From the NCBI GenBank assembly GCA_964016885.1, contig OZ024740.1:14012001-14076000 (forward strand): DNA of 64,000 nt, written 5' to 3'. The stretch is from Eledone cirrhosa (lineage: Eukaryota). The position numbers were made by a program, and so were the translations under genes. The notes below the pieces were generated by a model that was not told the DNA's origin, did no database searches, and was given only the letters and a program-made list of their open reading frames with translations. Shown one piece after another: positions 23,243-58,535 of the stretch (its first letter is position 1; each line of letters begins with the position of its first letter).

Positions 23243-23523
23243 TATGTGATTAAAAACTTTTTTGTATAGCAAACCATGTAAACCTTCTTTCCTGATTTAT
23301 ATATATATATATATATATTGTTATACTTGGGGAGGGTCATATTTGTGTAATATTGCCAGAATTAATAACGGAACACACTCACTGTTTGGTTGGTTTTCGC
23401 TTTTCACTTCTGTGTTTTTTATATCGGTAATCTAATTTATTCGGTCCTCAATGTTGCCATTGACTGACCAACGGTCAAAAATAATACAGATACAATTTAG
23501 ACACAAACACATATATATAGTTT

Positions 23524-23565
23524 ATCAAAGTTCTTTCGTTGCACATCTGCAACATCGTCAGTGGT
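23524..23565 (-). ncRNA. Minimal type I hammerhead ribozyme motif in inverted pLTR (family A)
   Basis: Minus strand: acca-CTGACGA-t-gttgca/tgcaac-GAAA-gaac-TT-tgat. Confidence 0.7.
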
Positions 23566-23863
23566 GCTATTGTTTCCTCCCGTTGCATTGTATTTTCTAC
23601 GCCATCTTTATTTAGTCTGTTTATATATTTATTTATTGTTTATTTTATTTTGTCTATGCGCATGCGTTTGCGTGTGTGTATAGTGTTTTGTTTGATGTGT
23701 GTTCGTGATTGGGTGACTGTGTATTGGTTAATGTATTCTATCTTTACTAGTGTGTGTTTATATGTGTTTGTTGTTATTGTGCTTGCGTATGTATTTATTT
23801 ATTTATTTATGTATATATATATATATATGGCAATAGAAGAGGTAAATATTTAAATCGTATGGC

Positions 23864-25305
23864 TAAAAAGACTCCCATGGGAAGGTGGATTGGGTGGACC
23901 AAAGCTATAAGGACCCCCCAAAACAATGATCAGGTAAGAAAAATGGTCGCACATGCAATAGGGGCTAGTATCAAAACTACCCTAAAGGGCCACATATTCA
24001 AGTTCAACGAGATCTACACCCAAAATGAGGGAGCAGCCATTGGCGTCAGCATAGCTGGTGATGTTGCCAACCTTTTTATGGTATGGTGGGAAAGGAGACT
24101 TAAAGATCTCCTTAATGAGAGCTCCATAGACCTCATCATGTACTCTCGTTACGTAGACGATATCAATATAGTTATAAGAACATCCCCACTAGAGAGCACT
24201 AACTAGTTTGATTTAGAACGTAGCACAATGGAAAGCATCCAGCAGATAGCTAATTCCATACACCAGAGTATAACTGTAACTATCGACTACCCTTCCAAAC
24301 ACCCTAACAATAGACTACCTGTATTAGACACGGAACTCTGGATTAACACTATAGACGAGAGAGCCCAAATTCTCCACTCACACTATGCTAAACCCATGGC
24401 CTCCAAATACCTGATACTCAAAAACTCAGCAATGTCCAGTAGTGCTAAGTTTAATATTCTGATCGCAGATTTGGTACGAGTGATGAAGAATGTGTCCCGC
24501 ATGTGCGACCAACAGAAATGGAAAGACACATCCAACACTTCATCAACCGCATGCAGTTCTCTGGCTACAACCAAAGAGACAGAGTCAGAGTATACGAAGG
24601 AGCCATGGAGAATTATAAGACCCTCATAGAACTGGACATGAAAGGAATTTGCCCATTACACAGGAGCAAATCATGGAATAGCTTAGATAGGGCTAGACAT
24701 AAGATAGGGAAAGCCACCTCATGGTACGACAACCAAAGATACCAGAGTGTCATGTTTGTGGACGCTACCCCTTGAGGGAAATTAGCTAACCAGTGTAGAA
24801 AGGCCCTGAGAAAGACCCACTTAAAGATTAAGGTGGTAGAAAAGCCAGGAACCACCATAAAATCCCTGATCAGCAAAACCTACCGTTTTAAGAAAACCCA
24901 CTGTACCAATAGGAAATGTATCATATATAAGGTGAACCCCCGGATAAACTGTAAAACTAGAAACGTAGTCTATAGCATAAGATGTACAGAGGGTACTTGC
25001 AGAAACATGACAACAACATACATAGGTGAGACAGCTCGTAGCATAGGTGAAAGGATAGACCAACACTGGGGGGAACTAAAAGGACGAAAAACGGGTCAAT
25101 ACTATACGAACATGCTAGACAACAACATGACGGTAACATAGACAACATAGAAATTAGAATAATATCTAAACATAGAAATGACCCAGCAGATAGGCAAATC
25201 AGAGAGGCCAATGAAATAGAACTTAGAAGGCCAAGACTAAACAGAAAGAATGAATGGAATAACAACAACACCCAAACAAACAACACTGACCTAAGAGAAG
25301 TATAA
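23864..25305 (+). pseudogene. PLE reverse transcriptase C-half plus GIY-YIG endonuclease, disrupted by stops and frameshifts
   Basis: ORF pieces carry GAAIGVSIAGDVANLFM, YSRYVDD, LPVLD, a Cys-rich linker and NVVYSIRC...YIGETARSIGER. Confidence 0.92.
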
Positions 25306-25561
25306 ATAAATAAATAAATAAATAAATAAATACATACACAAGCACAATAACAACAAACACATAAACACACACTAGTAAAGATAGAATACATTAACCAATA
25401 CACAGTCACCCAATCACGAACATACATCAAACAAAACACTATACACACACGCAAACGCATGCGCAAAGACAAAATAAAATAAACAAATAAATAAATATAT
25501 AAACAGACTACATAAATAAAGATGGCGTAGAAAATACAATGTAACGGGAGGAAACAATAGC

Positions 25562-25603
25562 ATCACTGACGATGTTGCAGATGTGCAACGAAAGAACTTT
25601 GAT
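25562..25603 (+). ncRNA. Minimal type I hammerhead ribozyme motif in pLTR (family A)
   Basis: atca-CTGACGA(25566)-t-gttgca gatg tgcaac-GAAA(25590)-gaac-TT-tgat. Confidence 0.75.
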
Positions 25604-26189
25604 AAACTATATATATGTGTTTGTGTCTAAATTGTATCTGTATTATTTTTGACCGTTGGGCAGTCAATGGCAACATTGAGGACCGAATAAATTAGAATAC
25701 CGATATAAAAGACACAGAAGCGAAAAGCGAAAACCAACCAAACAGTGAGTGTGTTCTGTTATTAATTCTGGCAATATTACACAAATATGACCCTCCCCAA
25801 ATATAACAATATTTGCTTCGACACACGATTTCATATAAAAAACCTTGCAAAACTAATTCATCGCCGTTATATATACATATATATATATATGAGCGGAACA
25901 AGTAAACATTAACCAATCTTTTAAATAAATTAAAATAAGATTTAAATATTTACCTCTTCTATTCCCATGACCGACGCTTCCGCTTATCAAAAGATTGGAA
26001 ATCAGAGAATTTCCAATGGAAAGATATAGCTCTTCAGATAGCTTTTCCACACTTACTAGATATAAATCCAAGTAAGTAGATGTATCGCTTTCTGCCCGGT
26101 GAATGAATCAAGCCGTTAAAATGACCCACACACAAATAGGCCGTAAGGAAAGCGGGAACTATAGACTCGTTGATATTTCATGTTACTAG

Positions 26190-28690: not shown

Positions 28691-28836
<146 letters not shown>

Positions 28837-28960: not shown

Positions 28961-29156
28961 TAGGAACGTGTAGGATCCCGACGGCTGAGCTCAAGCCGAT
29001 TCGACGGCTAATTTTGGACGCCAGAATTAGCTGTCGAAATGGCTTGAGGTCAGCCGTCTTGGTCCTACTCGTTCCTATTACCCACTCTACTACCCCAAGT
29101 ATTGAGTACTTTGGTGCGTTATGGTCCACCTGGTTCCTTACCACATTTCCTTCGTT
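28961..29156 (+). mobile_element. Hairpin-headed short element (family G copy 1)
   Basis: An imperfect palindrome at 28961-29077 is followed by the tail ACTCTACTACCCCAAGTATTGAGTACT..GGTCCACCTGG shared with 41006-41205. It sits in (TA)n. Confidence 0.75.
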
Positions 29157-29167
29157 ACATATATATA

Positions 29168-29799: not shown

Positions 29800-29853
<54 letters not shown>

Positions 29854-29900
29854 TACGCTTAACCACGAGATGAAACACAATATGAGTAACAGTCTCAGGG

Positions 29901-30955
29901 GTGACGCTAACCACCCCAGGACCGACGACCCCAACCGCAGGACACGTGGGGGGGGGGGGGGTACCACCCCACGATAGATCTCCCAGCGCGGGCGACGACC
30001 ACCCCATAGATTCGGGCCGTGAAGATAACAAAAAGCATAGCTCCCAAAGGGGAAGCAACAGTGCGGGAACCACCAGCAACTCAACAAATCTCCAACAAAT
30101 CATGACGCACCCGACCCCCACATATAGGAGGAGACACCGAAAAATCATGTGGTACAACCCACCCTACTCAGCGGCCCTAAAGAACAGCTTGGCCCGATCA
30201 TTCTTTGGAGCACTTGATAAATGCTTCCTGAGGGACCATAGATACCACAGGATCTTCAACAGACACACTGTGAAGTTCTCGTATTCCACCACGAGAAATC
30301 TGGCCCAACACATAGCTAGCATCAACAGGAGTAGGCTTAAAAACCACACACAACCAGAAGATGGCAAAACAAGCACTCAGCAGAACCATGTGAAAGGAGG
30401 GAAGGAGGGACCCAGAGCCACCCAAGAAACCCAAACAGACCCGGGGACCCCCCACCGTGCCTGGGGGAAGACCAACATATAACACATAACGGGAACCCTA
30501 ATCTAGGCACGCAGAGGTCGACCACCCTCTGCAACTGCAGAAACCTCGAATCATGCCCCCTTGGTAATGAATGCCTCAAGAAGAACCTAGTATACGGTTG
30601 TAGGGTTAAAACCTCCAACTCCTAACACCTCTACATAGGAGCCACATCAACGAGCTTTAAAGACCGCTGGTACAACCAACGCGATTCATTCAATAAGGAG
30701 GCCGAAAGGAAAAGCACGGCTCTCTCCGACCTGATCTGGAAGCTTAAGCTGGACAGGACCCCGTACTCTCTGGCCTGGTACATAATCAGGAAAGTACCAC
30801 CCGATAAAGGGGGATCTTGCATATGCAAACTATGCCTGAACGAGACCCTCGAGATACTAAGAGGTGGAAGCGGCCTGATAAACCTCAGAACCGACTTCTT
30901 CGGGACATGCAGACACCTTAGAGCCGGGACCTTCCTCAAGATATATGGACAGTAG
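29901..30955 (+). pseudogene. PLE thumb/linker plus GIY-YIG endonuclease remnant
   Basis: WYNPPYS...HRIFNRHTVKFSYSTTRN. In another frame from 30530, my translation gives CNCRNLESCPLGNECLKKNLVYGC..*..YIGATSTSFKDRWYN...CKLCLNE, with a stop at 30953-30955. Confidence 0.88.
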
Positions 30956-32143
30956 CAACACAAGAAGATGTGAACTCCCCCAAGCTATAGGGACTTCTAC
31001 AGAAAATGTAAACACCTCTCGGCCAGACCCCCCTCAAGCTATATGGGCAGTAACAACACCCTAGGTTGTGAACTCCCCTCAAGCCATAGGGAACAACCCA
31101 GGCTGAGCAGACACCATGATAGCCTAGAGATTGAATCGGACACAGCCATTATAATTTGGCCAACATCTATATAACACAAACACATTTTAATTTACTTGAT
31201 TTCTGATTTTCAAGTTCCAATTTTAAATCTTGATTTCTCTTTATTAATTTGTTATTTGTTTTCTGCCCTCTTCACTGTATCACCTTATATTTATTTTTAA
31301 GTTGAGATTGATTATAATACAAACACATTTAGTTTGATTATCTTATTTTAACATCTTGTCCCTCATACCAATCTATCCAACATATTTCTGACCTTGAGAT
31401 TGGTTATAGCACACACACACTTTATCCTACTTTATTTTAATCTTCATTTTATTTTTCACTTCTCCATATTCATTTTCATTACTTTTTCCCCAATTTTTCA
31501 TTTATTCTTTATTCTTTATTCTCTATTTATTATTTATTTTCTGTTTTCTTCATTTATTGCCTTATATTTCTTCATATACATGGAAGAACCCCCCCCACCA
31601 CCACCACCACCACCACCACTATGAGAGATGGTGGCAGGAGGGATGAAGAAAAAACACACACAGATACATCTAAATTGTCAGCAGCAGCAGCAAGACATAA
31701 GCTGACCACAACACCAACAACACTACCGAAATAATGGTAGAGGTCAAATGTACTTAACAATAGCAAACACAAACACCACAGAGAGCCTCACCCCAAAAAG
31801 AATTCTATAGACTTCCGACTGAGGAATGCTCTCAAAACTGACCAATGGGAAGTTTGACACTTTTTTTTTGTTATTTTGTTCCTTTACCACCTTGTTCCTT
31901 CTACCAATTTATCAATTTTTTAAGCTAACTCCAACAATAACAACACTTAGAATGAGGAATGTTCTAACAACTGACCAATGAGAGGAAAAGAGGCCCTTTG
32001 ACACTGAAATTCGTTTGTTTGAATTCATATGATTCCAGTTCCTCAGAGAAATAACAGCCTAACCAGGAACTGGACATATCAGAGTATTGACAAAATTATA
32101 CACCTCAACAACATATGTACTTGTCTATACCACACTAATTCGG

Positions 32144-32198
32144 ACTGCCTGAAGAGGTCACAGCCAAAGATGGCTGTCACTGAAATATATATAGCAGT
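32144..32198 (+). ncRNA. Type I hammerhead ribozyme motif
   Basis: actgc-CTGAAGA(32149)-..acagcca aaga tggctgt..-GAAA(32182)-tatata-TA-gcagt. Confidence 0.75.
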
Positions 32199-32248
32199 AA
32201 TAAACGAAGCTAAATTTAAAACATTTGACTTTTTATTTAACTTTATTT

Positions 32249-32307
<59 letters not shown>

Positions 32308-32312
<5 letters not shown>

Positions 32313-35300
32313 TAAGTTAAAGTGTACATCTACATATGTATACGGAAGTATTAGTATGCATATAAATACACACATGTATACATATGTACATGTACTCAGC
32401 TTTTCACTAGACACTTTACAGTGAGTGTCAGCTAGTCTGTATGTAACCACACAGGCGGACCGGGTTTTAGAGTCATACGAGTTTTCAAGGAAACACATTT
32501 CCTCTATTCTCCAGAGGGCCAGACAGGAATATTGGACTAGTTTCGATGTTATTACATCTCATCAGCAATATTTACCCATCTTCCGGCTTCTCTGGAGAAT
32601 TGTAAAAGCACATATCGTTATATGATATTTCTATGAAAATTAGTAGTGGGTAGACTAATTTGCATAGAACGTGAGTCATTGTACGCACCGGTTCAGCGGA
32701 AACGATAAAAACAAATAACGAAACGAAATTAAATTTCGTTTCGCTTCTAACTCACTTTTGTATGACTGACGCTTAAATAATTAAGTTAAAGTGTACATCT
32801 ACATATGTATACGGAAGTATTAGTATGCATATAAATACACACATGTATACATATGTACATGTACTCAGCTTTTCACTAGACACTTTACAGTGAGTGTCAG
32901 CTAGTCTGTATGTAACCACACAGGCGGACCGGGTTTTAGAGTCATACGAGTTTTCAAGGAAACACATTTCCTCTATTCTCCAGAGGGCCAGACAGGAATA
33001 TTGGACTAGTTTCGATGTTATTACATCTCATCAGCAATATTTACCCATCTTCCGGCTTCTCTGGAGAATTGTAAAAGCACATATCGTTATATGCTTTTTC
33101 TATGAAAATTAGTAGTGGGTAGACTAATTTGCATAGAACGTGAGTCATTGTACGCACCGGTTCAGCGGAAACGATAAAAACAAATAACGAAACGAAATTA
33201 AATTTCGTTTCGCTTCTAACTCACTTTTGTATGACTGACGCTTAAATAATTAAGTTAAAGTGTACATCTACATATGTATACGGAAGTATTAGTATGCATA
33301 TAAATACACACATGTATACATATGTACATGTACTCAGCTTTTCACTAGACACTTTACAGTGAGTGTCAGCTAGTCTGTATTTAACCACACAGGCGGACCG
33401 GGTTTTAGAGTCATACGAGTTTTCAAGGAAACACATTTCCTCTATTCTCCAGAGGGCCAGACAGGAATATTGGACGAGTTTCGATGTTATTACATCTCAT
33501 CAGCAATATTTACCCATCTTCCGGCTTCTCTGGAGAATTGTAAAAGCACATATCGTTATATGCTTTTTCTATGAAAATTAGTAGTGGGTAGACTAATTTG
33601 CATAGAACGTGAGTCATTGTACGCACCGGTTCAGCGGAAACGATAAAAACAAATAACGAAACGAAATTAAATTTCGTTTCGCTTCTAACTCACTTTTGTA
33701 TGACTGACGCTTAAACAATTAAGTTAAAGTGTACATCTACATATGTATACGGAAGTATTAGTATGCATATAAATACACACATGTATACATATTTACATGT
33801 ACTCAGCTTTTCACTAGACACTTTACAGTGAGTGTCAGCTAGTCTGTATGTAACCACACAGGCGGACCGGGTTTTAGAGTCATACGAGTTTTCAAGGAAA
33901 CACATTTCCTCTATTCTCCAGAGGGCCAGACAGGAATATTGGACTAGTTTCGATGTTATTACATCTCATCAGCAATATTTACCCATCTTCCGGCTTCTCT
34001 GGAGAATTGTAAAAGCACATATCGTTATATGCTTTTTCTATGAAAATTAGTAGTGGGTAGACTAATTTGCATAGAACGTGAGTCATTGTACGCACCGGTT
34101 CAGCGGAAACGATAAAAACAAATAACGAAACGAAATTAAATTTCGTTTCGCTTCTAACTCACTTTTGTATGACTGACGCTTAAATAATTAAGTTAAAGTG
34201 TACATCTACATATGTATACGGAAGTATTAGTATGCATATAAATACACACATGTATACATATGTACATGTACTCAGCTTTTCACTAGACACTTTACAGTGA
34301 GTGTCAGCTAGTCTGTATTTAACCACACAGGCGGACCGGGTTTTAGAGTCATACGAGTTTTCAAGGAAACACATTTCCTCTATTCTCCAGAGGGCCAGAC
34401 AGGAATATTGGACGAGTTTCGATGTTATTACATCTCATCAGCAATATTTACCCATCTTCCGGCTTCTCTGGAGAATTGTAAAAGCACATATCGTTATATG
34501 CTTTTTCTATGAAAATTAGTAGTGGGTAGACTAATTTGCATAGAACGTGAGTCATTGTACGCACCGGTTCAGCGGAAACGATAAAAACAAATAACGAAAC
34601 GAAATTAAATTTCGTTTCGCTTCTAACTCACTTTTGTATGACTGACGCTTAAACAATTAAGTTAAAGTGTACATCTACATATGTATACGGAAGTATTAGT
34701 ATGCATATAAATACACACATGTATACATATTTACATGTACTCAGCTTTTCACTAGACACTTTACAGTGAGTGTCAGCTAGTCTGTATGTAACCACACAGG
34801 CGGACCGGGTTTTAGAGTCATACGAGTTTTCAAGGAAACACATTTCCTCTATTCTCCAGAGGGCCAGACAGGAATATTGGACTAGTTTCGATGTTATTAC
34901 ATCTCATCAGCAATATTTACCCATCTTCCGGCTTCTCTGGAGAATTGTAAAAGCACATATCGTTATATGCTTTTTCTATGAAAATTAGTAGTGGGTAGAC
35001 TAATTTGCATAGAACGTGAGTCATTGTACGCACCGGTTCAGCGGAAACGATAAAAACAAATAACGAAACGAAATTAAATTTCGTTTCGTTTCTAACTCAC
35101 TTTTGTATGACTGACGCTTAAATAATTAAGTTAAAGTGTACATCTACATATGTATACGGAAGTATTAGTATGCATATAAATACACACATGTATACATATG
35201 TACATGTACTCAGCTTTTCACTAGACACTTTACAGTGAGTGTCAGCTAGTCTGTATGTAACCACACAGGCGGACCGGGTTTTAGAGTCATACGAGTTTTC

Positions 35301-38300
35301 AAGGAAACACATTTCCTCTATTCTCCAGAGGGCCAGACAGGAATATTGGACGAGTTTCGATGTTATTACATCTCATCAGCAATATTTACCCATCTTCCGG
35401 CTTCTCTGGAGAATTGTAAAAGCACATATCGTTATATGCTTTTTCTATGAAAATTAGTAGTGGTTAGACTAATTTGCATAGAACGTGAGTCATTGTACGC
35501 ACCGGTTCAGCGGAAACGATAAAAACAAATAACGAAACGAAATTAAATTTCGTTTCGCTTCTAACTCACTTTTGTATGACTGACGCTTAAACAATTAAGT
35601 TAAAGTGTACATCTACATATGTATACGGAAGTATTAGTATGCATATAAATACACACATGTATACATATGTACATGTACTCAGCTTTTCACTAGACACTTT
35701 ACAGTGAGTGTCATCTAGTCTGTATGTAACCACACAGGCGGACCGGGTTTTAGAGTCATACGAGTTTTCAAGGAAACACATTTCCTCTATTCTCCAGAGG
35801 GCCAGACAGGAATATTGGACTAGTTTCGATGTTATTACATCTCATCAGCAATATTTACCCATCTTCCGGCTTCTCTGGAGAATTGTAAAAGCACATATCG
35901 TTATATGCTTTTTCTATGAAAATTAGTAGTGGGTAGACTAATTTGCATAGAACGTGAGTCATTGTACGCACCGGTTCAGCGGAAACGATAAAAACAAATA
36001 ACGAAACGAAATTAAATTTCGTTTCGCTTCTAACTCACTTTTGTATGACTGACGCTTAAACAATTAAGTTAAAGTGTACATCTACATATGTATACGGAAG
36101 TATTAGTATGCATATAAATACACACATGTATACATATGTACATGTACTCAGCTTTTTACTAGACACTTTACAGTGAGTGTCAGCTAGTCTGTATGTAACC
36201 ACACAGGCGGACCGGGTTTTAGAGTCATACGAGTTTTCAAGGAAACACATTTCCTCTATTCTCCAGAGGGCCAGACAGGAATATTGGACTAGTTTCGATG
36301 TTATTACATCTCATCAGCAATATTTACCCATCTTCCGGCTTCTCTGGAGAATTGTAAAAGCACATATCGTTATATGCTTTTTCTATGAAAATTAGTAGTG
36401 GGTAGACTAATTTGCATAGAACGTGAGTCATTGTACGCACCGGTTCAGCGGAAACGATAAAAACAAATAACGAAACGAAATTAAATTTCGTTTCGCTTCT
36501 AACTCACTTTTGTATGACTGACGCTTAAATAATTAAGTTAAAGTGTACATCTACATATGTATACGGAAGTATTAGTATGCATATAAATACACACATGTAT
36601 ACATATGTACATGTACTCAGCTTTTCACTAGACACTTTACAGTGAGTGTCAGCTAGTCTGTATGTAACCACACAGGCGGACCGGGTTTTAGAGTCATACG
36701 AGTTTTCAAGGAAACACATTTCCTCTATTCTCCAGAGGGCCAGACAGGAATATTGGACGAGTTTCGATGTTATTACATCTCATCAGCATTATTTACCCAT
36801 CTTCCGGCTTCTCTGGAGAATTGTAAAAGCACATATCGTTATATGCTTTTTCTATGAAAATTAGTAGTGGTTAGACTAATTTGCATAGAACGTGAGTCAT
36901 TGTACGCACCGGTTCAGCGGAAACGATAAAAACAAATAACGAAACGAAATTAAATTTCGTTTCGCTTCTAACTCACTTTTGTATGACTGACGCTTAAACA
37001 ATTAAGTTAAAGTGTACATCTACATATGTATACGGAAGTATTAGTATGCATATAAATACACACATGTATACATATGTACATGTACTCAGCTTTTCACTAG
37101 ACACTTTACAGTGAGTGTCAGCTAGTCTGTATGTAACCACACAGGCGGACCGGGTTTTAGAGTCATACGAGTTTTCAAGGAAACACATTTCCTCTATTCT
37201 CCAGAGGGCCAGACAGGAATATTGGACTAGTTTCGATGTTATTACATCTCATCAGCAATATTTACCCATCTTCCGGCTTCTCTGGAGAATTGTAAAAGCA
37301 CATATCGTTATATGCTTTTTCTATGAAAATTAGTAGTGGGTAGACTAATTTGCATAGAACGTGAGTCATTGTACGCACCGGTTCAGCGGAAACGATAAAA
37401 ACAAATAACGAAACGAAATTAAATTTCGTTTCGCTTCTAACTCACTTTTGTATGACTGAGGCTTAAACAATTAAGTTAAAGTGTACATCTACATATGTAT
37501 ATGGAAGTATTAGTATGCATATAAATACACACATGTATACATATTTACATGTACTCAGCTTTTCACTAGACACTTTACAGTGAGTGTCAGCTAGTCTGTA
37601 TGTAACCACACAGGCGGACCGGGTTTTAGAGTCATACGAGTTTTCAAGGAAACACATTTCCTCTATTCTCCAGAGGGCCAGACAGGAATATTGGACTAGT
37701 TTCGATGTTATTACATCTCATCAGCAATATTTACCCATCTTCCGGCTTCTCCGGAGAATTGTAAAAGCACATATCGTTATATGCTTTTTCTATGAAAATT
37801 AGTAGTGGGTAGACTAATTTGCATAGAACGTGAGTCATTGTACGCACCGGTTCAGCGGAAACGATAAAAACAAATAACGAAACGAAATTAAATTTCGTTT
37901 CGCTTCTAACTCACTTTTGTATGACTGACGCTTAAACAATTAAGTTAAAGTGTACATCTACATATGTATACGGAAGTATTAGTATGCATATAAATACACA
38001 CATGTATACATATGTACATGTACTCAGCTTTTCACTAGACACTTTACAGTGAGTGTCAGCTAGTCTGTATGTAACCACACAGGCGGACCGGGTTTTAGAG
38101 TCATACGAGTTTTCAAGGAAACACATTTCCTCTATTCTCCAGAGGGCCAGACAGGAATATTGGACTAGTTTCGATGTTATTACATCTCATCAGCAATATT
38201 TACCCATCTTCCGGCTTCTCTGGAGAATTGTAAAAGCACATATCGTTATATGCTTTTTCTATGAAAATTAGTAGTGGGTAGACTAATTTGCATAGAACGT

Positions 38301-39210
38301 GAGTCATTGTACGCACCGGTTCAGCGGAAACGATAAAAACAAATAACGAAACGAAATTAAATTTCGTTTCGCTTCTAACTCACTTTTGTATGACTGAGGC
38401 TTAAACAATTAAGTTAAAGTGTACATCTACATATGTATATGGAAGTATTAGTATGCATATAAATACACACATGTATACATATTTACATGTACTCAGCTTT
38501 TCACTAGACACTTTACAGTGAGTGTCAGCTAGTCTGTATGTAACCACACAGGCGGACCGGGTTTTAGAGTCATACGAGTTTTCAAGGAAACACATTTCCT
38601 CTATTCTCCAGAGGGCCAGACAGGAATATTGGACTAGTTTCGATGTTATTACATCTCATCAGCAATATTTACCCATCTTCCGGCTTCTCTGGAGAATTGT
38701 AAAAGCACATATCGTTATATGCTTTTTCTATGAAAATTAGTAGTGGGTAGACTAATTTGCATAGAACGTGAGTCATTGTACGCACCGGTTCAGCGGAAAC
38801 GATAAAAACAAATAACGAAACGAAATTAAATTTCGTTTCGCTTCTAACTCACTTTTGTATGACTGACGCTTAAACAATTAAGTTAAAGTGTACATCTACA
38901 TATGTATACGGAAGTATTAGTATGCATATAAATACACACATGTATACATATGTACATGTACTCAGCTTTTCACTAGACACTTTACAGTGAGTGTCAGCTA
39001 GTCTGTATGTAACCACACAGGCGGACCGGGTTTTAGAGTCATACGAGTTTTCAAGGAAACACATTTCCTCTATTCTCCAGAGGGCCAGACAGGAATATTG
39101 GACTAGTTTCGATGTTATTACATCTCATCAGCAATATTTACCCATCTTCCGGCTTCTCTGGAGAATTGTAAAAGCACATATCGTTATATGCTTTTTTATG
39201 AAAATTAGTA
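32308..39210 (-). repeat. 469-bp tandem array, about 14.7 near-identical units, each carrying a hammerhead ribozyme (retrozyme-like)
   Basis: The ORF track recurs every 469 bp (32425 to 38991, 15 times) and there is an HHR in each unit on the minus strand. Confidence 0.95.
32528..32572 (-). ncRNA. Type I hammerhead ribozyme (first of 15; others at +469n)
   Basis: Minus strand: aatattg-CTGATGA-gatgt aata acatc-GAAA-ctag-TC-caatatt. The core is canonical with a GUC site. Predicted cut is between 32535 and 32534. Confidence 0.9.
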
Positions 39211-39212
39211 TG

Positions 39213-39451
39213 ACTCGTATGACTCTAAAACCCGGTCCGCCTGTGTGGTTACATACAGACTAGCTGACACTCACTGTAAAGTGTCTAGTGAAAAGCTGAG
39301 TACATGTACATATGTATACATGTGTGTATTTATATGCATAGTAATACTTCCGTATACATATGTAGATGTACACTTTAACTTAATTGTTTAAGCCTCAGTC
39401 ATACAAAAGTGAGTTAGAAGCGAAACGAAATTTAATTTCATTTCGTTATTT

Positions 39452-39455
<4 letters not shown>
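39213..39455 (+). repeat. Inverted partial copy of the 469-bp unit capping the array
   Basis: ACTCGTATGACTCTAAAACCCGGTCC...TTCGTTATTTGTTT is the reverse complement of array sequence and is followed by (TA)n. Confidence 0.92.
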
Positions 39456-39489
<34 letters not shown>

Positions 39490-39498
<9 letters not shown>

Positions 39499-40045
39499 GA
39501 TAAATAAATAAATAAATAAATACATACACAAGCAAAATAACAACAAACACATATAAACACACACTGGTAAAGATAGAATACATTAACCAACACACAGCCA
39601 CCCAATCACGAACACACATCAAACAAAACACTATACACACACGCAAACGCATGCGCAAAGCAGACAAAATAAAATAAACAAATAAATAAATATATAAACA
39701 GACTAAATAAAGATGGCGTAGAAAATACAATGCAACGGGAGGAAACAATAGCACCACTGACGATGTTGCAGATGTGCAACGAAAGAACTTTGATAAACTC
39801 GGTGCCCCAGCATGGCCTCAGCCGGATGGCTGAAACAGGTAAAAGAGTAAAAGAGAATATGTGTTTGCGTCTATATTGTATCTGTATTTTTGACCGTCGG
39901 TCAGTCAATGGCAACATTGAGGACCGAATAAATTAGATTACCGATATAAAAGACACATAAGCGAAAAGCGAAAACCAACCAAACATTGAGTGTGTTCTGT
40001 TATTAATTCTGGCAATATTACACAAATATGACCCTCCCCAAGTAT

Positions 40046-40051
<6 letters not shown>
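39490..40051 (+). mobile_element. Solo pLTR of PLE family A with HHR (39753-39794) and a SINE-tail insertion (about 39800-39858)
   Basis: Matches 25305-25810, with CTGACGA at 39757 and GAAA at 39781. The inserted GGTGCCCCAGCATGGCC..CTGAAACAGGTAAAAGAGTAAAAGAG is absent from the other copies. Confidence 0.9.
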
Positions 40052-40249: not shown

Positions 40250-41005
40250 AATAACCCTTTTGAGAAATTACACCAGTCCAGCCTCTTGTTATTTTATAAT
40301 AATTAACTCTGTACTCGCACCACCAACAACACAAACGAAGACGGGTGAGTTGCATTACGTCGAGTGCTCTCCCTAATATTACATGGAGGTTGACCATACG
40401 GAATGACCAGTTCTATCCAGTGGTGAACCAACAAACCTAAATAAATAAATATGTAGTGTTAGATAATTTGATTGAAAAACACCCTGCCATTATATACTCA
40501 TCAAAGGTCAGCTAATGAAATAAAACCAGCAGGAGGGGATGTTTACAACAACCTTCTCAAACACCCTTATCTTGATGTCAACCTCACCATTTTCTGAGTG
40601 TATATGTGTGTGTGTGTGGGGGGGGGGGGGCGTGTATGTGTGTGTATGTGTGTGCGTGTGTGTATGTGTGTGTGCGTATGCTTTAATTCCTCCAAATCTT
40701 CATCAACACTCATTAACACCACACCCCACACCCAAGACACATCCAAATCTCCCTTATATATAGTCACACATCTCAACACAACCTGATCTCAGTTTGACAA
40801 TCGCCACCGACGAATGCGAGAAAGTTCTCCAACAAAGTTAACCAGGAATCTTTAAAATTCTCCCCACCGAAATTAACAAAGAACTTACTAGATCTACCAG
40901 ACGAGTATTACAATTAAAAAGAATTAATAAGAATTAAAAACTAAAAATTAAAGATTTAAAATTAAGAGGTAAGTTTTTTTCATCTTCCTTGTTGAGAAGA
41001 AGACT

Positions 41006-41205
41006 GGAAAAGAGTCAAGACCCCGACTGCTGAGCTCCGGCCGTTTCGACAGCTGGATCTGAACGTTCGGATCTAGCTGTCGAAAAGGCCGGAGCTCAGC
41101 CGTCGGGGTCCTGACTCTTTTCCTATTACTCACTCTACTACCCTAAGTATTGAGTACTCTGGTGCGTTATGGTCCACCTGGTATCTTACCAAACCCTCTT
41201 TGTTT
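41006..41205 (+). mobile_element. Hairpin-headed short element (family G copy 2)
   Basis: Imperfect palindrome at 41006-41123 plus a tail homologous to 29078-29156. Confidence 0.75.
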
Positions 41206-41432: not shown

Positions 41433-42314
41433 TATCTATATATGCACATATGAAAATAAAAAATAATCAAATCGTGCGAAACCATTTTTCTGGTTTGTGA
41501 GCTGATGGGGTAAAGATGTATGTGTGTGTGTAAACTCGTCTTGTACACTGTTTCTTTATTTCCTTCTAGTCACTTCTATGCGCCAACACACTTCTCCTTA
41601 TCCTCTTTCAATCTTTTCTATATTTCATTTACCTGTCACTGTCATCCACCTTGTGGATTGTCTCTTTGTTGACCACTGGCCGTTGAGCTCTGTCCGCTGA
41701 GGCAGTTTTGCCCATCGCTGTCTTTGACAGTATTTAGCTGTTTTAACGGCTGTTCAAGCGATGAGTTTTCTCAATTTTATACGTATTCAAATACACTCCC
41801 GCTTCGTCTCGATCAGAAACTACATTGCTTCGGGAATTGAATAAGCGGTATGTCGCATATCCAATCTCTCATATATTTTATCTGATGAAAACATACTGAA
41901 ACACCATTGTACCTTTGAAATATGTATAATAAAATATATATTTTGGTTATGAGAATATTTTTCATTTATTAATATTTTGAATAATATTATATTTATATAT
42001 ATATATATATGGTTTTATATGTTTTTTATATATATATTATCCTTATCGACCCCTCTTCGGATTTTACTCTTCACATTTATTATTATTACTATATATATAT
42101 GTTTTAGGTAATTCCGAAGGAAAAGCAAAGGAAAAAAGAGTGCTCTATGTATAGAACACTGACAACCGATCCAGACGTATATTATTATTGTCTGTGATCC
42201 AGAAACGTTTGTTAATGGAGTAGTTATATTTAGTGTTGTTCACTTTCCAATTAAATATATATATATATTAAAGGTATATATTGAGTGAGGAACTCAAATA
42301 GTCTCTTATAACAA

Positions 42315-42749
42315 AATAGCTCTAAGAAAGAGATATTTCTGAGCCGTATATTATAATAGAATATAAAAGAAAAACGAACACAGATATATAGATATATGTG
42401 TTCAAATCGTAAGGGACCTGATTCGCTAAGGTGAAAAGAATACTAACTATAGACAATATTTTATATATATAGCATACATAGATGTGTCTAGGATACTAAT
42501 TCATCACCCACTGATGAGCTTGGATTGGTATTTCTATTCACAATTAACTTTGCGAAACAACAACAAGTTGTCTGGGTGATTGGTAGTTAGCACAATTCCA
42601 GTTTGTATTTATTTTCTTAATTTTTTCTTAAATTGACACAAGCGAACGCAATTGTCTATAGTTAGTATTCTTTTCACCTTAGCGAATCAGGTCCCTTACG
42701 ATTTGAACACATATATCTATATATCTGTGTTCGTTTTTCTTTTATATTC

Positions 42750-42755
<6 letters not shown>
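42315..42755 (+). mobile_element. Non-coding family F element: about 100-bp inverted arms enclosing a hammerhead
   Basis: About 42352-42456 is the reverse complement of 42652-42755, with the HHR in between. Confidence 0.82.
42503..42580 (+). ncRNA. Canonical type I hammerhead ribozyme
   Basis: atcaccca-CTGATGA(42511)-gc...gc-GAAA(42554)-caac aacaa gttg-TC-tgggtgat. It has an 8-bp stem I, a 4-bp stem III and a GUC site. Confidence 0.85.
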
Positions 42756-42819
<64 letters not shown>

Positions 42820-42889
42820 GAAAGTTAGAGTTAATAACTCTTACCGAAACCCTGTAATCAATAAGCTCCAAGTATAAATACTGAGCATT

Positions 42890-43345
42890 ATAATAATAAT
42901 ATATATGTAGTAAGAAACACAGTAAATCGTGTGTCTAATATTACGAGGGTTGAAAGACCACATTTGTTTGAAATATTTAACCATGAAGCAGACAGAATGA
43001 TAAAATAAAATAAAATTATATTATACAAACCGCCCCAATAACAATTATATCTCTCGGACAGATTAGGGATAATCTGTTTCGCCCTGAGTGTATTTGTAAC
43101 AGATAATCCTGGGCATCATCAGCGAGAGAATCTGATTAAATGCAACAAACACCTAGTACCAACGTTCACACAGAAAGATGAATTTATCACCTCGTGCGCC
43201 GCAAGTCAAAAGTGGTATGAGTGTATTGGTTAGAAACAACAGTCCAACATACGCAACTTAATAAGCTCACCTCATGAGGGAGCCGAAATATTTCAACCCT
43301 CGTAATATTGGACACACGATTTACTGTGTTTCCTACTACATATAT

Positions 43346-43360
<15 letters not shown>
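42890..43360 (-). mobile_element. Non-coding element with about 65-bp inverted arms enclosing a hammerhead
   Basis: 42890-42955 is the reverse complement of 43291-43360. The element is flanked by AT microsatellite. Confidence 0.75.
43051..43128 (-). ncRNA. Canonical type I hammerhead ribozyme
   Basis: Minus strand: ctctcg-CTGATGA-t-gccc...gggc-GAAA-cagatta tccc taatctg-TC-cgagag, with a 7-bp stem III and a GUC site. Confidence 0.88.
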
Positions 43361-44559: not shown

Positions 44560-45303
44560 CATATATATATATATATATATATGTGTGTGATATATATATG
44601 TATATATATATAATATATATATGTGTGTGTGTGTATATATATATATATGCATATATATGTGTGTGTTCGTATATATATAGTTATATATATACATATATTT
44701 ATATATATACATATATATGTACATATACGTATATGTATATATTTATGGCGGCGATGATTTAGTTTTGCGAGTTTTTTTTTTATATGAAATCGTGTGTCGA
44801 AACAAATATTGTTATACTTGGGGAGGGTCATATTTGTGTAATATTGCCAGAATTAATAACAGAACACACTCACTGTTTCGTTGGTTTTCGCTTCTTGCTT
44901 CTGTGTCTTTTATATCGGTAATCTAACCTACTCGGTCCTCAATATGGCCATTGACTGACCGACGGTCAAAAGTAATACAGATACAATATAGACACAAACA
45001 CATATATATAGTTTATCATAAATCTTTCGTTGCACATCTGCAACATCGTCAGTGGTGCTATATTTTCCTCCTGTTGTATTGTATGTCTACGCCATTTTTA
45101 TTCAGTCTGTCTATATATTTATTTATTTATTTTCTTGTTTGTTTATTTTATTTTGTCTTCTTTGCGCATGCGTTTGCGTGTGTGTATAGTGTTTTGTTTG
45201 TTGTGTGATGAGTGACTAGTGTGTGTTTATGTGCTTGTTGTTATTGTGCTTGTGTATGTATTTATATATTTATTTATTTATTTATTTTATTTTATTTATT
45301 TAT

Positions 45304-46751
45304 TTATACTTCTCTTAGGTCAGTGTTGTTTGTTTGGGTGTTGTTGTTATTCCATTCATTCTTTCTGTTTAGCCTTGGTCTTCTAATTTCTATTTCACTG
45401 GCCTCTCTGATTTGCCTATCTGCTGGGTCATTTCTATGTTTAGATATTATTCTAATTTCTATGTTGTCTATGTTACCGTCATGTTGTTGTCTAGCATGTT
45501 CGTATAGTACTGACCCAATTTTTCGTCCTTTTAGTTCCTCCCAGTGTTGGTCTATCCTTTCACCTATGCTACGAGCTGTCTCACCTATGTATGTTGTTGT
45601 CATGTTTCTGCAAGTACCCTCTGTACATCTTATGCTATAGACTACGTTTCTAGTTTTACAGTTTATCCGGGGGTTCACCTTACATATGATACATTTCCTA
45701 TTGGTACAGTGGGTTTTCTTTAAAGGGTAGGTTTTGCTGATCAGGGATTTTATGGTGGTTCCTGGCTTTTCTACCACCTTTATTTTCAAGTGGATCTTTC
45801 TCAGGGCCTTTCTACATTGGTTAGCTAATTTCCCTCCAGGGGTAGCGTCCACAAACATGACACTCTGGTATCTCTGGTTGTCGTACCATGAGGTGGCTTT
45901 CCCTATCTTATGTCTAGCCCTATCTAAGCTATTCCATGATTTGCTCCTGTATAATGGGCAAATTCCTTTCATGTCCAGTTCTATGAGGGTCTTATACTTC
46001 TCCATGGCTCCTTCGTATACTCTGACTCTGTCTCTTTGGTTGTAGCCAGAGAACTGCATGCGGTTGATGAAGTGTTGGATGTGTCTTTCCATTTCTGTTG
46101 GGTCGCACATGCGGGACACATTCTTCATCACTCGTACTAAATCTGCGATCAGAATATCAAACTTAGCACTACTGGACATTGCTCAGTTTTTGAGTATCAG
46201 GTATTTAGAGGCCATGGGTTTATCATAGTGTGAGTGGTGAATTTGGGCTCTCTCGTCTATAGTGTTAATCCAGAGTTCTGTGTCTAATACAGGTAGTCTA
46301 TTGTTAGGGTGTTTGGAAGGGAAGTCGATAGTTACAGTTATACACTGGTGTATGGAATTAGCTATCTGCTGGATGCTTTCCATCGTGCTACGTTCTAAAT
46401 CAAACTTGTTAGTACTCTCTAGTGGAGGTGTTCTTATAACTATATTGATATCGTCTACATAACGAGAGTACATGATGAGGTCTATGGAGCTCTCATTAAG
46501 GAGATCTTTAAGTCTCCTTTCCCACCATACCATGAAAAGGTTGGCAAGATCACCAGCTATGCTGACGCCGATGGCTGCTCCCTCATATTGGGTGTAGATC
46601 TTCTCGTTGAACTTAAATATGTGGCCCTTTAGGGTAGTTTTGATACTAGCCCCTATTGCATGTGCGACCATTTTTCTTACCTGATCATTGTTTTGGGGGG
46701 TCCTTATAGCTTTGGTCCACCCAATCCACCTTCCCATGGGAGTCTTTTTTG
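45304..46751 (-). pseudogene. PLE RT C-half plus GIY-YIG, 5'-truncated and interrupted near 46183
   Basis: ORFs carry YSRYVDD, LPVLD, CTNRKCIIC, NVVYSIRC..YIGETARSIGER and RQIREASEI..PRLN. Confidence 0.93.
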
Positions 46752-47365
46752 GTAGACATAAGATAGGGAAAGCCACCTCATGGTATGACAACCAGAGATA
46801 CCAGAGTGTCATGTTTGTGGACGCTACCCCTGGAGGGAAATTAGCTAACCAGTGTAGAAAGGCCCTGAGAAAGACCCACTTGAAAATAAAGGTGGTAGAA
46901 AAGCCAGGAACCACCATAAAATCCCTGATCAGCAAAACCTACCGTTTTAAGAAAACCCACTGTACCAATAGGAAATGTATCATATATAAGGTGAACGCCC
47001 GGATAAACTGTAAAACTAGAAACGTAGTCTATAGCATAAGATGTACAGAGGGTACTTGCAGAAACATGACAACAACATACATAGGTGAGACAGCACGTAG
47101 CATAGGTGAAAGGATAGACCAACACTGGGGGGAACTAAAAGGACGAAAAACGGGTCAATACTATACGAACATGCTAGACAACAACATGACGGTAACATAG
47201 ACAACATAGAAATTAGAATAATATCTAAACATAGAAATGACCCAGCAGATAGGCAAATCAGAGAGGCCAGTGAAATAGAAATTAGAAGATCAAGGCTAAA
47301 CAGAAAGAATGAATGGAATAACAACAACACCCAAACAAACAACACTGACCTAAGAGAAGTATAAA
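46752..47365 (+). pseudogene. Inverted duplicate of the PLE linker/GIY-YIG region, frameshifted
   Basis: HKIGKATSWY...YIGETARSIGER in ORF 46688-47200. Confidence 0.9.
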
Positions 47366-47857
47366 TAAGTAAATAAAATAAAATAAATAAATAAATACAT
47401 ACACAAGCACAATAACAACAAGCACATAAACACACACTAGTCACCCATCACACAACAAACAAAACACTATACACACACGCAAACGCATGCGCAAAGAAGA
47501 CAAAATAAAATAAACAAACAAGAAAATAAATAAATAAATATATAGAGAGACTGAATAAAAATGGCGTAGACATACAATACAACAGGAGGAAAATATAGCA
47601 CCACTGACGATGTTGCAGATGTGCAACGAAAGATTTATGATAAACTATATATATGTGTGTGTGTCTATATTGTATCTGTATTACTTTTGACTGTCGGTCA
47701 GTCAATGGCAACATTGAGGACCGAGTAAGTTAGATTACCGATATAAAAGACACAGAAGCGAGAAGCGAAAACCAACCATACAGTGAGTGTGTTCTGTTAT
47801 TAATTCTGGCAATATTACACAAATATGACCCTCCCCATATATATTTATGTATTTATG

Positions 47858-47993
<136 letters not shown>

Positions 47994-48082
47994 AAGATTA
48001 AACAAGGTTCAATGAATAAATCAAAGAATGAGTTTTAAAATAGATTGGAAGCACTCAACAGAATTGGTTTTCCGGAGTTATT

Positions 48083-48251
48083 AATATTAATTCAAAATAT
48101 TAACAAAATAGATATTCTTGTGATCAAGTATATTATATTATACATATTTCAGAGGTACTGAGTTAACTTGAACAGTTAACTCAGTACCTCTGAAATATAT
48201 ATAATAAAATATACTTGATCACAAGAATATCTATTTTGTTAATATTTTGAA

Positions 48252-48258
<7 letters not shown>
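48083..48258. repeat. Near-perfect palindrome with arms of about 85 bp (fold-back remnant)
   Basis: The centre is GAGGTACTGAGTTAAC-TTGAACA-GTTAACTCAGTACCTC and the arms extend to AATATTAATTCAAAA / TTTTGAATTAATAT. Confidence 0.9.
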
Positions 48259-55406: not shown

Positions 55407-55494
<88 letters not shown>

Positions 55495-55965
55495 CGTTTC
55501 TGAATTTGTTTAGCAAGATTCTTTATCTGAAATCGTGTGTTGAAACCGATATTGTTATACTTTGGGAGGGTCATGTTGCCAATAAGAAACACACGCACCA
55601 GTTGCTTTCACTTCAATTTATTATATATTTATAAATTTATAAATTTACAAATCTACAAACTTATACATTTCTGGTTGGTTGGTTGGTTCCACAACCAGAT
55701 AGTTGTTTATATATAGTCATAGTCCTTTCGTCACACACTCTGTGACCTCTTCAGTGACTGGGGATTCCTTTCTTTGTTTCTGTGCCTTTCCTTTCTTCTG
55801 TCCTACGCCATTTTGTTTCTGTGTGTGTGTGTTGTGCGCTCAGTTTGCGCATGCGCCACATCCGGGTGTCTGTGTGTGTTTGTGTTCATTTATCTATTTG
55901 TTTATTTATTTATTTATTGTTGGTTGGTTGTTTGTTCTATGTGTGTGTGTGTTTTCATTTTGTCC

Positions 55966-57330
55966 TTAATTGTAAGTTGTGATGTTGCTGTTCCACTCAT
56001 ATTTTCTATTTAATTTTGGTTGTAATTCTTTTATGCTTACTGCCTCTGTAATTTGCCTAAACATTGCATCCTTTCTGTGTGTGGATGCTATTTTTATTTC
56101 TATGTTCTCTAATTTACCCCTGTGCTCTATCTTAGCATGTTGGTAGAGCACAGATGATTCTTTATTATCTTGAAGGTCTCGCCAGTGTTCATTTATTCGT
56201 TCCCCTATGCTACGAGCTGTCTCACCTATGTACACTATATTTTTGTTTCTACATTATCCTTCAGTACATCTTATGCTATACACTACATTTCTAGTTTTAC
56301 AGTTAATATGGGGGCTTATTTTACAGGTTATACATTTCTTATCTATACATGAGGGTCTTTGGAACGGGTATGTCTTGCTAATAAGTGTTTTTACAGAGGT
56401 ACCTGGTCTTTCTACTATCTTAATATTGAGTTTATGTTTATTTAGGGCCCTTCTAAATTTGTAGGCTAGTTCGCCTCTAGGGGTTGTATTGATGAACATT
56501 ACACTCTGGTATTTATTGCTATCATACCATGAGTTTATTCTATTGGCCTTGTTCCTAGTTCTTTCTATTCTATTCCAAAATTTGCTCCTATACAAGGGGC
56601 AGGTCCCATTTATGTCATTATTTACCATTTTTTCCCATTTGGTTCTGGCTCCTCTATACACTCTGATTCTATCTCTCTGATTATAGCCAGAGAACTGCAT
56701 ACGGTGGATGAAGTGTTGTATGTGTCTCTCTAGTTCTTCGGGGTTGCACATGCGGGACACATTTCTCATCACCCGTACGAAATCCGCAATCAGTATGTTG
56801 ATTTTGGTATGGTTCGAAATGGCCGAGTTTCGGTGGATCAGATGTTTGGAAGTCATGGGTTTGGCATAATGGGAATGGAGGATTTGTTTTTGGTTGTTAA
56901 TGGTATCTAACCAGAGCTCTGTGTCTAGTACAGGTAATCGATGGTTGGGGTGTCTACTTGGGTAGTCTATAGTAACTCTAATGCTCTGGTGGATGGAGTT
57001 TGCTATTTGCTGGATGCTTTCCATTGTGTTTTTCTCTAGTTCCTGACTGTTCTTTAGTGGGGGTGTCTTAACTACGATGTTTATATCATCTACGTAGCGG
57101 GAGTACATTATCAGGGTTAAGCTGTCTTCTAATTGTTCTTTAAGTTTTTGTTTAAGTCTATTGTCCCACCATACCATGAATAAGTTAGCTATGTCGCCTG
57201 CAATGCTAACAGCAATGGCTGCTCCTTCCTCTTGGGCATATGTTTTACCATTAAATTTGAACATATGTTCCTTAAGGGTTAATTTTATGCTGGCCCCTAC
57301 CGCATGTGCAATCATTTTCTTCAGTTCATC
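55966..57330 (-). pseudogene. PLE RT C-half plus GIY-YIG, with an in-frame TAA at 56254
   Basis: GAAIAVSIAGDIANLFM, YSRYVDD, LPVLD, NVVYSIRC*..YIGETARSIGER. Confidence 0.93.
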
Positions 57331-57397
57331 GTATGTTAGCTCAACAGTATGGAGCAGTTAATACTATCAGAGAGATAGAATCAGAGCAGTTAATACT

Positions 57398-58113
57398 ATC
57401 AGAGAGATAGAATCAGAGTGTATAGAGGAGCCAGAACCAAATGGGAAAAAATGGTAAATAATGACATAAATGGGACCTGCCCCTTGTATAGGAGCAAATT
57501 TTGGAATAGAATAGAAAGAACTAGGAACAAGGCCAATAGAATAAACTCATGGTATGATAGCAATAAATACCAGAGTGTAATGTTCATCAATACAACCCCT
57601 AGAGGCGAACTAGCCTACAAATTTAGAAGGGCCCTAAATAAACATAAACTCAATATTAAGATAGTAGAAAGACCAGGTACCTCCTTAAAAACACTTATTA
57701 GCAAGACATACCCGTTCCAAAGACCCTCATATATAGATAAGAAATGTATAACCTGTAAAAGAAGCCCCCATATTAACTGTAAAACTAGAAATGTAGTGTA
57801 TAGCATAAGATGTACTGAAGGATAATGTAGAAACAAAAATATAGTGTACATAGGTGAGACAGCTCGTAGCATAGGGGAACGAATAAATGAACACTGGCGA
57901 GACCTTCAAGATAATAAAGAATCATCTGTGCTCTACCAACATGCTAAGATAGAGCACAGGGGTAAATTAGAGAACATAGAAATAAAAATAGCATCCACAC
58001 ACAGAAAGGATGCAATGTTTAGGCAAATTACAGAGGCAGTAAGCATAAAAGAATTACAACCAAAATTAAATAGAAAATATGAGTGGAACAGCAACATCAC
58101 AACTTACAATTAA
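57398..58113 (+). pseudogene. Inverted duplicate of the family B linker/GIY-YIG
   Basis: ORFs 57418-57825 and 57844-58113 mirror the minus-strand copy, including the same stop. Confidence 0.9.
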
Positions 58114-58319
58114 GGACAAAATGAAAACACACACACACATAGAACAAACAACCAACCAACAATAAATAAATAAATAAACAAATAGATAAATGAACACAAA
58201 CACACACAGACACCCGGATGTGGCGCATGCGCAAACTGAGCGCACAACACACACACACAGAAACAAAATGGCGTAGGACAGAAGAAAGGAAAGGCACAGA
58301 AACAAAGAAAGGAATCCCC

Positions 58320-58364
58320 AGTCACTGAAGAGGTCACAGAGTGTGTGACGAAAGGACTATGACT
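58320..58364 (+). ncRNA. Minimal type I hammerhead in family B pLTR (mirror copy at 55715-55759 on the minus strand)
   Basis: agtca-CTGAAGA(58325)-g-gtcaca gagtg tgtgac-GAAA(58350)-ggac-TA-tgact. Confidence 0.82.
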
Positions 58365-58535
58365 ATATATAAACAACTATCTGGTTGTGGAACCAACCAA
58401 CCAACCAGAAATGTATAAGTTTGTAGATTTGTAAATTTATAAATTTATAAATATATAATAAATTGAAGTGAAAGCAACTGGTGCGTGTGTTTCTTATTGG
58501 CAACATGACCCTCCCAAAGTATAACAATATATATA

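Follow-up and report, generated by a model that had tools for sequence, protein, structure and literature searches.

Ends of Penelope-like elements and of hammerhead repeats

Insertions of Penelope-like elements (PLEs) are described, in the openly available portions of the literature, as carrying an inverted, 5'-truncated copy together with a 30–40-bp tail at one end (PMC8557442; PMC3846280), and a (TA)n target is regarded as a PLE hallmark (PMC8557442). A CX4CX2C linker is reported in Neptune, Nematis and Naiad elements and has been hypothesised to mediate their microsatellite bias (PMC8557442). In vitro work on PAc, a PLE of the anole, assigns the tail to two internal RT start sites; on AT-rich DNA the PAc protein cuts both strands and extends each of them, with no need for cleavage by the ribozyme (PMC11167929). 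The minimal hammerhead of PLEs has a short helix I, a long helix II and a 5' bulged base, and circle-templated copying of more than one unit was proposed in 2014 (PMC4209133). Non-autonomous multicopy PLEs in head-to-tail arrangement are known in Chlamydomonas, for example MRC1 of Chlamydomonas reinhardtii (PMC8557442; PMC9977147).

Which enzyme moves animal retrozymes is a question that the PLE-type ends of the array reported here address at a single locus. Mobilisation of retrozymes by PLEs has already been proposed from their co-occurrence and from pLTR homology in Xenopus (PMC7229834; bioRxiv 10.64898/2026.07.22.740005). A 2020 review states that retrozyme repeats show no motif revealing the partner (PMC7761336), and the accessible text of a 2026 preprint describes the mechanism as remaining to be elucidated, with local amplification from a pLTR offered as well (bioRxiv 10.64898/2026.07.22.740005). 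In that preprint, self-cleavage in vitro failed for eight out of nine retrozymes predicted in Xenopus, so ribozyme activity of the array described below cannot be assumed. The word 'inverted' does not occur in the main text of PMC7229834, nor do 'inversion' and 'tail' in the accessible text of bioRxiv 10.64898/2026.07.22.740005. Inverted caps, tails or TA targets at the ends of retrozyme arrays were not found in the open literature that was searched, and a search on Octopus, Penelope and hammerheads returned nothing on such ends; supplements and subscription papers may show them.

The hammerhead array, its ends and its units

The DNA analysed (the window) is a stretch of 64,000 nucleotides from Eledone cirrhosa (assembly GCA_964016885.1, contig OZ024740.1, positions 14,012,001 to 14,076,000), and all coordinates refer to it. 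The array and its surroundings comprise the following features:

32258..32308, no strand: (TA)n tract bordering the array at its short end, on the 3' side of the RNA; it is also at the 3' end of PLE fragment O (29851-32248)
32309..39210 (start 32308 or 32309), minus strand: tandem array, 14.7 x 469 bp with 99% matches, non-coding, retrozyme-type body
39079..39149, minus strand: type I hammerhead of the terminal unit, predicted cleavage at 39101, recurring every 469 bp down to 32535
39208..39225, no strand: inversion junction, with 3-nt microhomology and a 9-nt direct duplication (39208-39216 / 39217-39225)
39213..39455, plus strand: whole inverted cap, 243 bp, reverse complement of unit positions 402-469 plus 1-174
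39213..39386, plus strand: part of the cap mirroring the left end of the array (32309-32482), 99.4% identity
39387..39454, plus strand: 68-nt tail, a one-sided extension of the cap past the left-end stop, ending just beyond a strong hairpin
39455..39490, no strand: (TA)n tract at the outer end of the cap, followed by a solo A-family pLTR fragment (39491-40049)

The array resembles retrozymes in consisting of small tandem units, each with a type I hammerhead and with at least two consecutive complete motifs, that are non-coding, have a GC content below 50% (0.36-0.37) and specify an RNA predicted to be highly self-paired. The folding z-score of the unit was -9.4 against 100 shuffles, and the unit folded as a circle is predicted to reach -155 kcal/mol with 69% of bases paired. 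The hammerhead combines a 7-bp stem I, an intact core, a 5-bp stem II without a bulge and a 2-bp stem III with a palindromic hexamer, and does not have the minimal form of PLE hammerheads. In a strict scan it was recovered on the minus strand in 14 of the 15 units, the unit-10 copy, in which stem I is changed, being missed. The Rfam model Hammerhead_HH9 (RF02275) aligned to it with the core intact and a score of 31.8 bits (E 7.9e-7 in a 111-base search), short of the gathering score of 52; at gathering thresholds, Rfam gave no matches in the window. A scan by E-value returned mostly miRNA models on palindromes and TA repeats, which were judged to be chance matches (best 150 of 269 listed). A change at unit position 231, common to units 3, 5, 7 and 10, breaks the stem III palindrome and would weaken dimeric cleavage in these units.

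The longest stop-free frames of the concatenated unit are just 72 and 84 aa, and tblastn with 79 PLE proteins against the unit gave a best E of 0.022. The array contains no RT or endonuclease ORF, which sets it apart from autonomous EN+ PLEs, and no LTR-internal-LTR layout is visible in it.

Because the hammerhead lies on the minus strand, the inversion is on the 5' side of the RNA. A sequence-only reading of this stretch had described the array as turning into a 243-bp inverted copy at the 5' end of the ribozyme strand, with both outer ends abutting (TA)n; its coordinates are right, and each outer end lies 1 nt from a tract. The tracts on both flanks hide any TSD. Two features go beyond that reading, namely the 68-nt one-sided tail and the junction with its 3-nt microhomology and 9-nt duplication. 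Within the unit, 68 nt separate the two outer ends, the cap reaching further along the RNA than the body; they are located 226 nt (short end) and 294 nt (tail end) downstream of the predicted cleavage site. The body ends at 39210 and the alignment of the cap starts at 39213, and unit positions 339-401 are absent from both the cap and the terminal partial unit. Since the body crosses the cleavage site and positions 339-401 are present in neither end piece, the template would have been longer than one unit. Given an RNA origin, this anatomy suggests a founding insert of at least one full unit plus a partial one (~1.7 units), copied from an uncleaved multimeric or circular RNA and not from a cleaved monomer. 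The ends argue for PLE-type seeding because they display three published hallmarks, a 5' head-to-head inverted truncated copy, a tail at one end and a (TA)n target; in its cap, tail and TA ends, the array likely works like a PLE insertion.

Variants were compared among the 14 full units, the terminal unit being left out since its apparent variants stem from a 1-nt deletion. The 28 differences from the majority sequence represent just 14 distinct variants, seven of which are shared. The 26 shared variant pairs observed compare with a mean of 0.27 under independent mutation or 5.5 with 30-fold CpG hotspots, and this number was reached in none of 20,000 simulations under either mutation model. 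When monomers are phased on the ribozyme, m11 equals m13, m2-m3 equals m4-m5, and m6-m7 resembles m9-m10; two older variants are common to both of these pairs of dimers, forming a nested dimer pattern. No single period explains the shared variants. The cap has 463G, like units 11 and 13, but without the linked 36T and 79T, so that its haplotype (463G, 36C, 79G) occurs in no unit; 79T is also found without 463G. These combinations imply exchange or recurrence. Dating of the cap relative to the array was dropped, as 2 private changes in 241 nt are too few to compare with the units.

The nested sharing between non-adjacent units requires duplication at the DNA level, here or at a donor array, and the unit pattern records mutate-then-duplicate steps in DNA. 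We infer that the expansion occurred at this very locus; the assembled unit number could be imperfect. Repeated copying around one circle, which the sequence-only reading had raised as a possible source of the 15 units, is not supported, given the nested dimers and the variants shared between non-adjacent units, while its wording that the array arose 'not only by DNA slippage' stands. Because the units here record DNA-level duplication, their number is not to be read as rounds of a rolling circle.

Inverted elements and TA tracts across the window

Window positions 1-21432 are filled by ~1128 copies of a 19-bp G-rich satellite, strongly strand-skewed, with multi-kb exact internal duplications at lags of 3781 and 3002 bp that represent recent expansion or assembly duplication. 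Beyond 21432, (TA)n tracts lie densely together with PLE-type fragments, of which many are inverted, and the genome is microsatellite-rich. The window contains 63 TA tracts of at least 10 nt, and tracts cover 5.4% of the non-array bases; because they are so common, TA flanks at a single locus are weak evidence. This region also contains a Helitron-like ORF fragment at 49389-51014 (Pfam Helitron_like_N, E 1.3e-26) with a 69-bp internal repeat, an imperfect palindrome at 22470-22736 with 4.9 terminal copies of a 21-bp unit, and two solo A-family pLTR pieces (39491-40049; from 63930) that start in or near a (TAAA)n stretch. The first of these pieces is joined directly to the right TA tract of the array and has no tail.

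Local inverted pairs were surveyed after masking of TA tracts, taking all pairs of at least 40 nt and at least 80% identity under span rules set to admit the array and element E. An arm end was located 1 nt from a TA tract in 10 of the 15 pairs, against 3.5% expected (binomial 7e-12, with pairs that are not independent). Among the five pairs off a tract, B is 15 nt from one; the others are F2, H2, a pair formed by two separate copies of G, and an insert at a junction. Elements used for comparison with the array were the following:

23319..25868, plus strand: A, truncated coding PLE with RT, CX4CX2C linker, GIY-YIG-type region and a broken ORF; inverted cap; hammerhead at 25566
44747..47838, minus strand: B, same family as A; inverted cap, 72-nt overhang
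55493..58526, minus strand: D, coding PLE related to these, with arms of 99.6% identity, a 60-nt tail and flanking TA at each end; hammerheads at 55754 (minus) and 58325 (plus)
42269..42752, plus strand: F, short, without a visible ORF; the loop separating the arms contains a hammerhead; 87-nt tail, flanking TA at each end
42817..43359, minus strand: N, short, without a visible ORF; the loop separating the arms contains a hammerhead; 70-82-nt tail, flanking TA at each end
58582-63926: E, PLE-like, protein type unlike A, B and D; direct repeat of ~860 bp, inverted cap
29851-32248: O, PLE-like, protein type unlike A, B and D; ends at the left TA tract of the array; hammerhead at 32149

Elements A, B and D are identified as PLEs by their RT motifs, the CX4CX2C linker carried by all three, their architecture and 79 mostly unnamed homologues. 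The only species-named protein among these 79, which are homologues of D, is from Octopus bimaculoides, with 55% identity to D. Pfam gave sub-threshold RT and GIY-YIG matches in two of seven PLE ORF pieces; judged by motif alone, A, B and D would be Neptune/Nematis-like. The sequence-only reading had ascribed the architecture of the array to three coding PLEs, A, B and D, without coordinates, and we took them to be the intervals listed. All three possess head-to-head inverted arms (96.4% identity in A, 96.6% in B, 99.6% in D), and A and D abut (TA)n, but the likeness is incomplete for B, whose ends lie in degenerate TA-rich sequence, with strict tracts 20 and 38 nt away.

Hammerheads of the bulged, long-stem-II form are present in A and D. 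Distances from the cleavage site to the short end and the tail end, obtained by subtraction, are ~209 and 269 nt in A, 167 and 227 nt in D, and 180 and 267 nt in F; set beside these values, the distances in the array indicate that its polarity and geometry match those of the coding elements. An unequal overhang was found in 14 of 14 hand-delimited inverted elements, the array included. Overhangs measure ~60-64 nt in A, 72 in B, 60 in D, 87 in F, 46 in G, 83 in H, 82 in H2, 68 in J, 97 in K, 34 in M, 82 in N, 165 in E, 102 in F2 and 68 in the array, with uncertain boundaries for M, E, F2 and H2; automatic segmentation of M gave 0 and 0.

The junctions of A and D are rougher than that of the array. 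In A (23829-23860), a short (TA)n run accompanies a 25-nt exact inverted copy of the element's own right flank (25939-25963), and in D (57322-57418), a 37-nt exact inverted copy from element E, ~1.1 kb rightward (59662-59707), accompanies a 32-bp tandem duplication. Such templated inserts and duplications would fit template jumping or end-joining repair at the final step. The junction of D also supplies non-homologous residues at the start of its ORF. A and B are 92% alike and are truncated at almost the same 5' base (23865; 46749), and this suggests that both derive from a master copy that was already truncated, and not that each was truncated separately.

Nine short elements have inverted arms, mostly with a one-sided overhang and TA flanks, and in two of them, F and N, the arms enclose a hammerhead; the nine may represent truncated pLTRs or additional families of non-autonomous elements. 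Another TA-bounded element, at 52742-53084, has no inversion; by eye it contains a hammerhead-like motif with an unusually long stem II (~85 nt), a motif that was missed by the hammerhead scan and is not recovered by MFE folding. A short motif is common to the tails of this element and of H, H2, J and K (pairwise p 0.01-0.025 uncorrected, leaving out the H/H2 pair, since H and H2 are one family). The positions are:

42269-42752, 42817-43359, 28031-28694, 28963-29158, 40975-41205, 47991-48254, 53557-53984, 54066-54268 and 26186-26443: short inverted-arm elements
29075-29158 (H), 41124-41205 (H2), 54201-54268 (J), 47991-48087 (K) and 52950-53084 (the 52742 element): tails sharing the motif

The unit was compared with pLTRs and tails of window elements by local alignment against shuffles, and none of nine regions was significant; the best tail comparison was that of the array with O (p 0.035, uncorrected). 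BLASTN, nhmmer and tblastx of the unit against the window returned TA-rich low-complexity matches only, among the matches listed. Similarity to the pLTR or 3' end of a partner, by which a PLE derivative would be recognised, was thus not found within the window. Two resemblances noticed by eye were set aside: a 13-nt match between stem II of the unit and the pLTR of E was dropped as chance, E being non-significant, and a motif that the array, F and N seemed to share close to their short ends was unsupported (p 0.97 against F, 0.91 against N). Tail length and target make A, B and D plausible partners.

Origin of the array and comparison with known systems

Taken together, these results make it very probable that the array was seeded by PLE machinery from an RNA longer than one unit. 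The full account toward which we lean adds local expansion at the DNA level after this seeding. Seeding is better supported than the sequence-only reading had argued because of the PLE tail and the PLE-like distances from the ribozyme. That reading had a PLE RT/endonuclease acting in trans; tail and distances uphold the seeding, while mobilisation in trans is suggested by the lack of coding capacity and no partner was found in the window.

The founding copy of a non-autonomous hammerhead repeat would have been inserted by the RT/GIY-YIG protein of a (TA)n-targeting PLE. This protein would bind uncleaved multimeric or circular unit RNA, of more than one unit by the anatomy above, and would nick both strands of (TA)n, two cDNAs starting 68 nt apart, one 226 nt and the other 294 nt beyond the site of cleavage. 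Where the ends lie is observed, and the biochemistry of PAc suggests the enzyme. A long cDNA of at least 1.7 units and a short one of 243 nt may then have joined head to head with 3-nt microhomology and a 9-nt slip; twin priming and fold-back copying of the first cDNA predict the same junction. Unequal exchange, duplication and conversion could have produced the ~15 units. In favour of this account we count the array overhang of 68 nt alongside those of A (~60-64), B (72) and D (60), the comparable distances from the cleavage site to the ends, the 10 of 15 inverted pairs that border TA tracts, and the templated inserts or duplications that the junctions of A and D also have. Against it we count the missing pLTR homology, the canonical hammerhead, tails that are longer than the printed 30-40 bp and not obviously AC-rich at their ends, unlike PAc, the single locus, the frequency of TA and a variant pattern that could have been inherited from a donor array.

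Several other explanations predict some of these features. An unrelated, structure-mimicking ribozyme RNA might parasitise the PLE protein, with two fixed internal primings on an endless circle from both strands of nicked (TA)n, which would produce the multimeric body and the tailed inverted cap, and the shared variants a later overlay; we consider this doubtful, but if true, the array would be a direct footprint of PLE-driven integration of a retrozyme circle, and recognition would need RNA structure rather than pLTR sequence. It is rather unlikely that a single PLE event copied most of the 6.9 kb, variants included, from a long transcript that had read through a donor array and been cleaved incompletely. 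The same PLE-type ends would result, the 2-bp stem III predicts poor cleavage of monomers (PMC4209133), and unprocessed RNA was the main substrate of PAc in vitro (PMC11167929); however, a 6.9-kb cDNA through 15 ribozymes would be required where the coding PLEs of the window are truncated at ~2 kb, and the cap haplotype absent from every unit suggests exchange after insertion. A single pass in which RT ran ~15 times around one monomeric circular RNA, a model proposed in PMC4209133 and PMC7229834, agrees with the stable circular fold predicted for the unit and with ends away from the cleavage site, as expected from internal priming. Such a pass predicts private variants only, whereas 7 of the 14 distinct variants are shared and no single period fits, and DNA-level exchange would have to be added later; one-pass circle copying is largely refuted for this locus, and we regard it as very improbable.

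The unit could also be the deleted pLTR of an autonomous PLE outside the window, inserted in cis in partial tandem and then amplified locally as a satellite, a scenario put forward in bioRxiv 10.64898/2026.07.22.740005. It predicts the same ends, and the unit is close in length to the pLTR of A (~510 bp), but it is improbable: no coding remnant appears in the stop-free frames or by tblastn, the hammerhead has the canonical and not the PLE-minimal form, structure extends over the whole unit, and a clean head-to-tail unit demands a prior precise deletion. Microhomology and a short duplication at a junction are typical of end-joining repair. Both are present here, TA tracts make up ~5% of the region and the 19-bp satellite has multi-kb exact duplications, which would accord with a hammerhead satellite that gained a fold-back inversion through break repair (microhomology-mediated template switch), TA tracts serving as fragile or annealing sites. 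Such a DNA-only origin is quite improbable, as it leaves unexplained why both ends are on the downstream side of the ribozyme, why their distances from it and the tail resemble those of PLEs, and why nearby coding PLEs and short hammerhead elements have the same layout. Palindromes and arrays are error-prone in assemblies (PMC8557442), and the inversion might be a sequencing or assembly artefact (fold-back chimera). However, comparison of the cap with its neighbouring arm (38806-39046) shows 3 mismatches in 241 nt, two of them private to the cap; this, the duplication at the junction and the unrelated sequence beyond each end render an artefact exceedingly improbable. The other inverted pairs of the window, at 89 to 100% identity, also speak against it.

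With PLE-type seeding as the preferred reading, the retrozyme-PLE link, a concept that is not new, gains a concrete and testable footprint, at one locus. Any long-read assembly can be screened across the whole genome for non-coding ribozyme arrays with such a tail and inverted cap, and the array ends name two candidate start sites for PLE priming.

Among known systems, EN+ PLEs of the Neptune/Nematis/Naiad type share with the array a partial-tandem body, a 5' head-to-head inverted truncated copy, a tail at one end, a (TA)n target, a microhomology junction and a hammerhead upstream of the ends. The array differs from them in having no RT/endonuclease ORF, ~15 rather than 1-2 units, a tail of 68 nt instead of 30-40 and a canonical rather than minimal hammerhead. 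In L1 twin priming, two cDNAs from opposite target strands are joined by microhomology, leaving an inverted 5' segment; the inverted piece derives from another segment of a single RNA, located further upstream, and poly(A) forms the 3' end. The array likewise has an inverted 5' segment attributable to a microhomology join of two cDNAs, but its two ends originate within a single part of the unit, at sites separated by 68 nt. The non-autonomous PLEs of Chlamydomonas, as far as the accessible accounts go, generally have a 3' sequence in common with the autonomous partner; their targets are (C)n or (CA)n, and most of them have no hammerhead, whereas the array has a hammerhead, a (TA)n target and no partner homology found in the window. 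Non-LTR retrozymes, in the available text of PMC7229834 and bioRxiv 10.64898/2026.07.22.740005, are likewise non-coding tandem type I hammerhead units of low GC content that are highly self-paired; the unit and repeat number of the array are within the reported range (units of 51-972 bp), and its genome also has PLEs. The evidence differs, consisting here of an insertion footprint (cap, tail and TA target), while pLTR homology was not found in the window. Judged by the features that can be read from sequence, the array would best be filed among the non-LTR retrozymes, with a PLE footprint.
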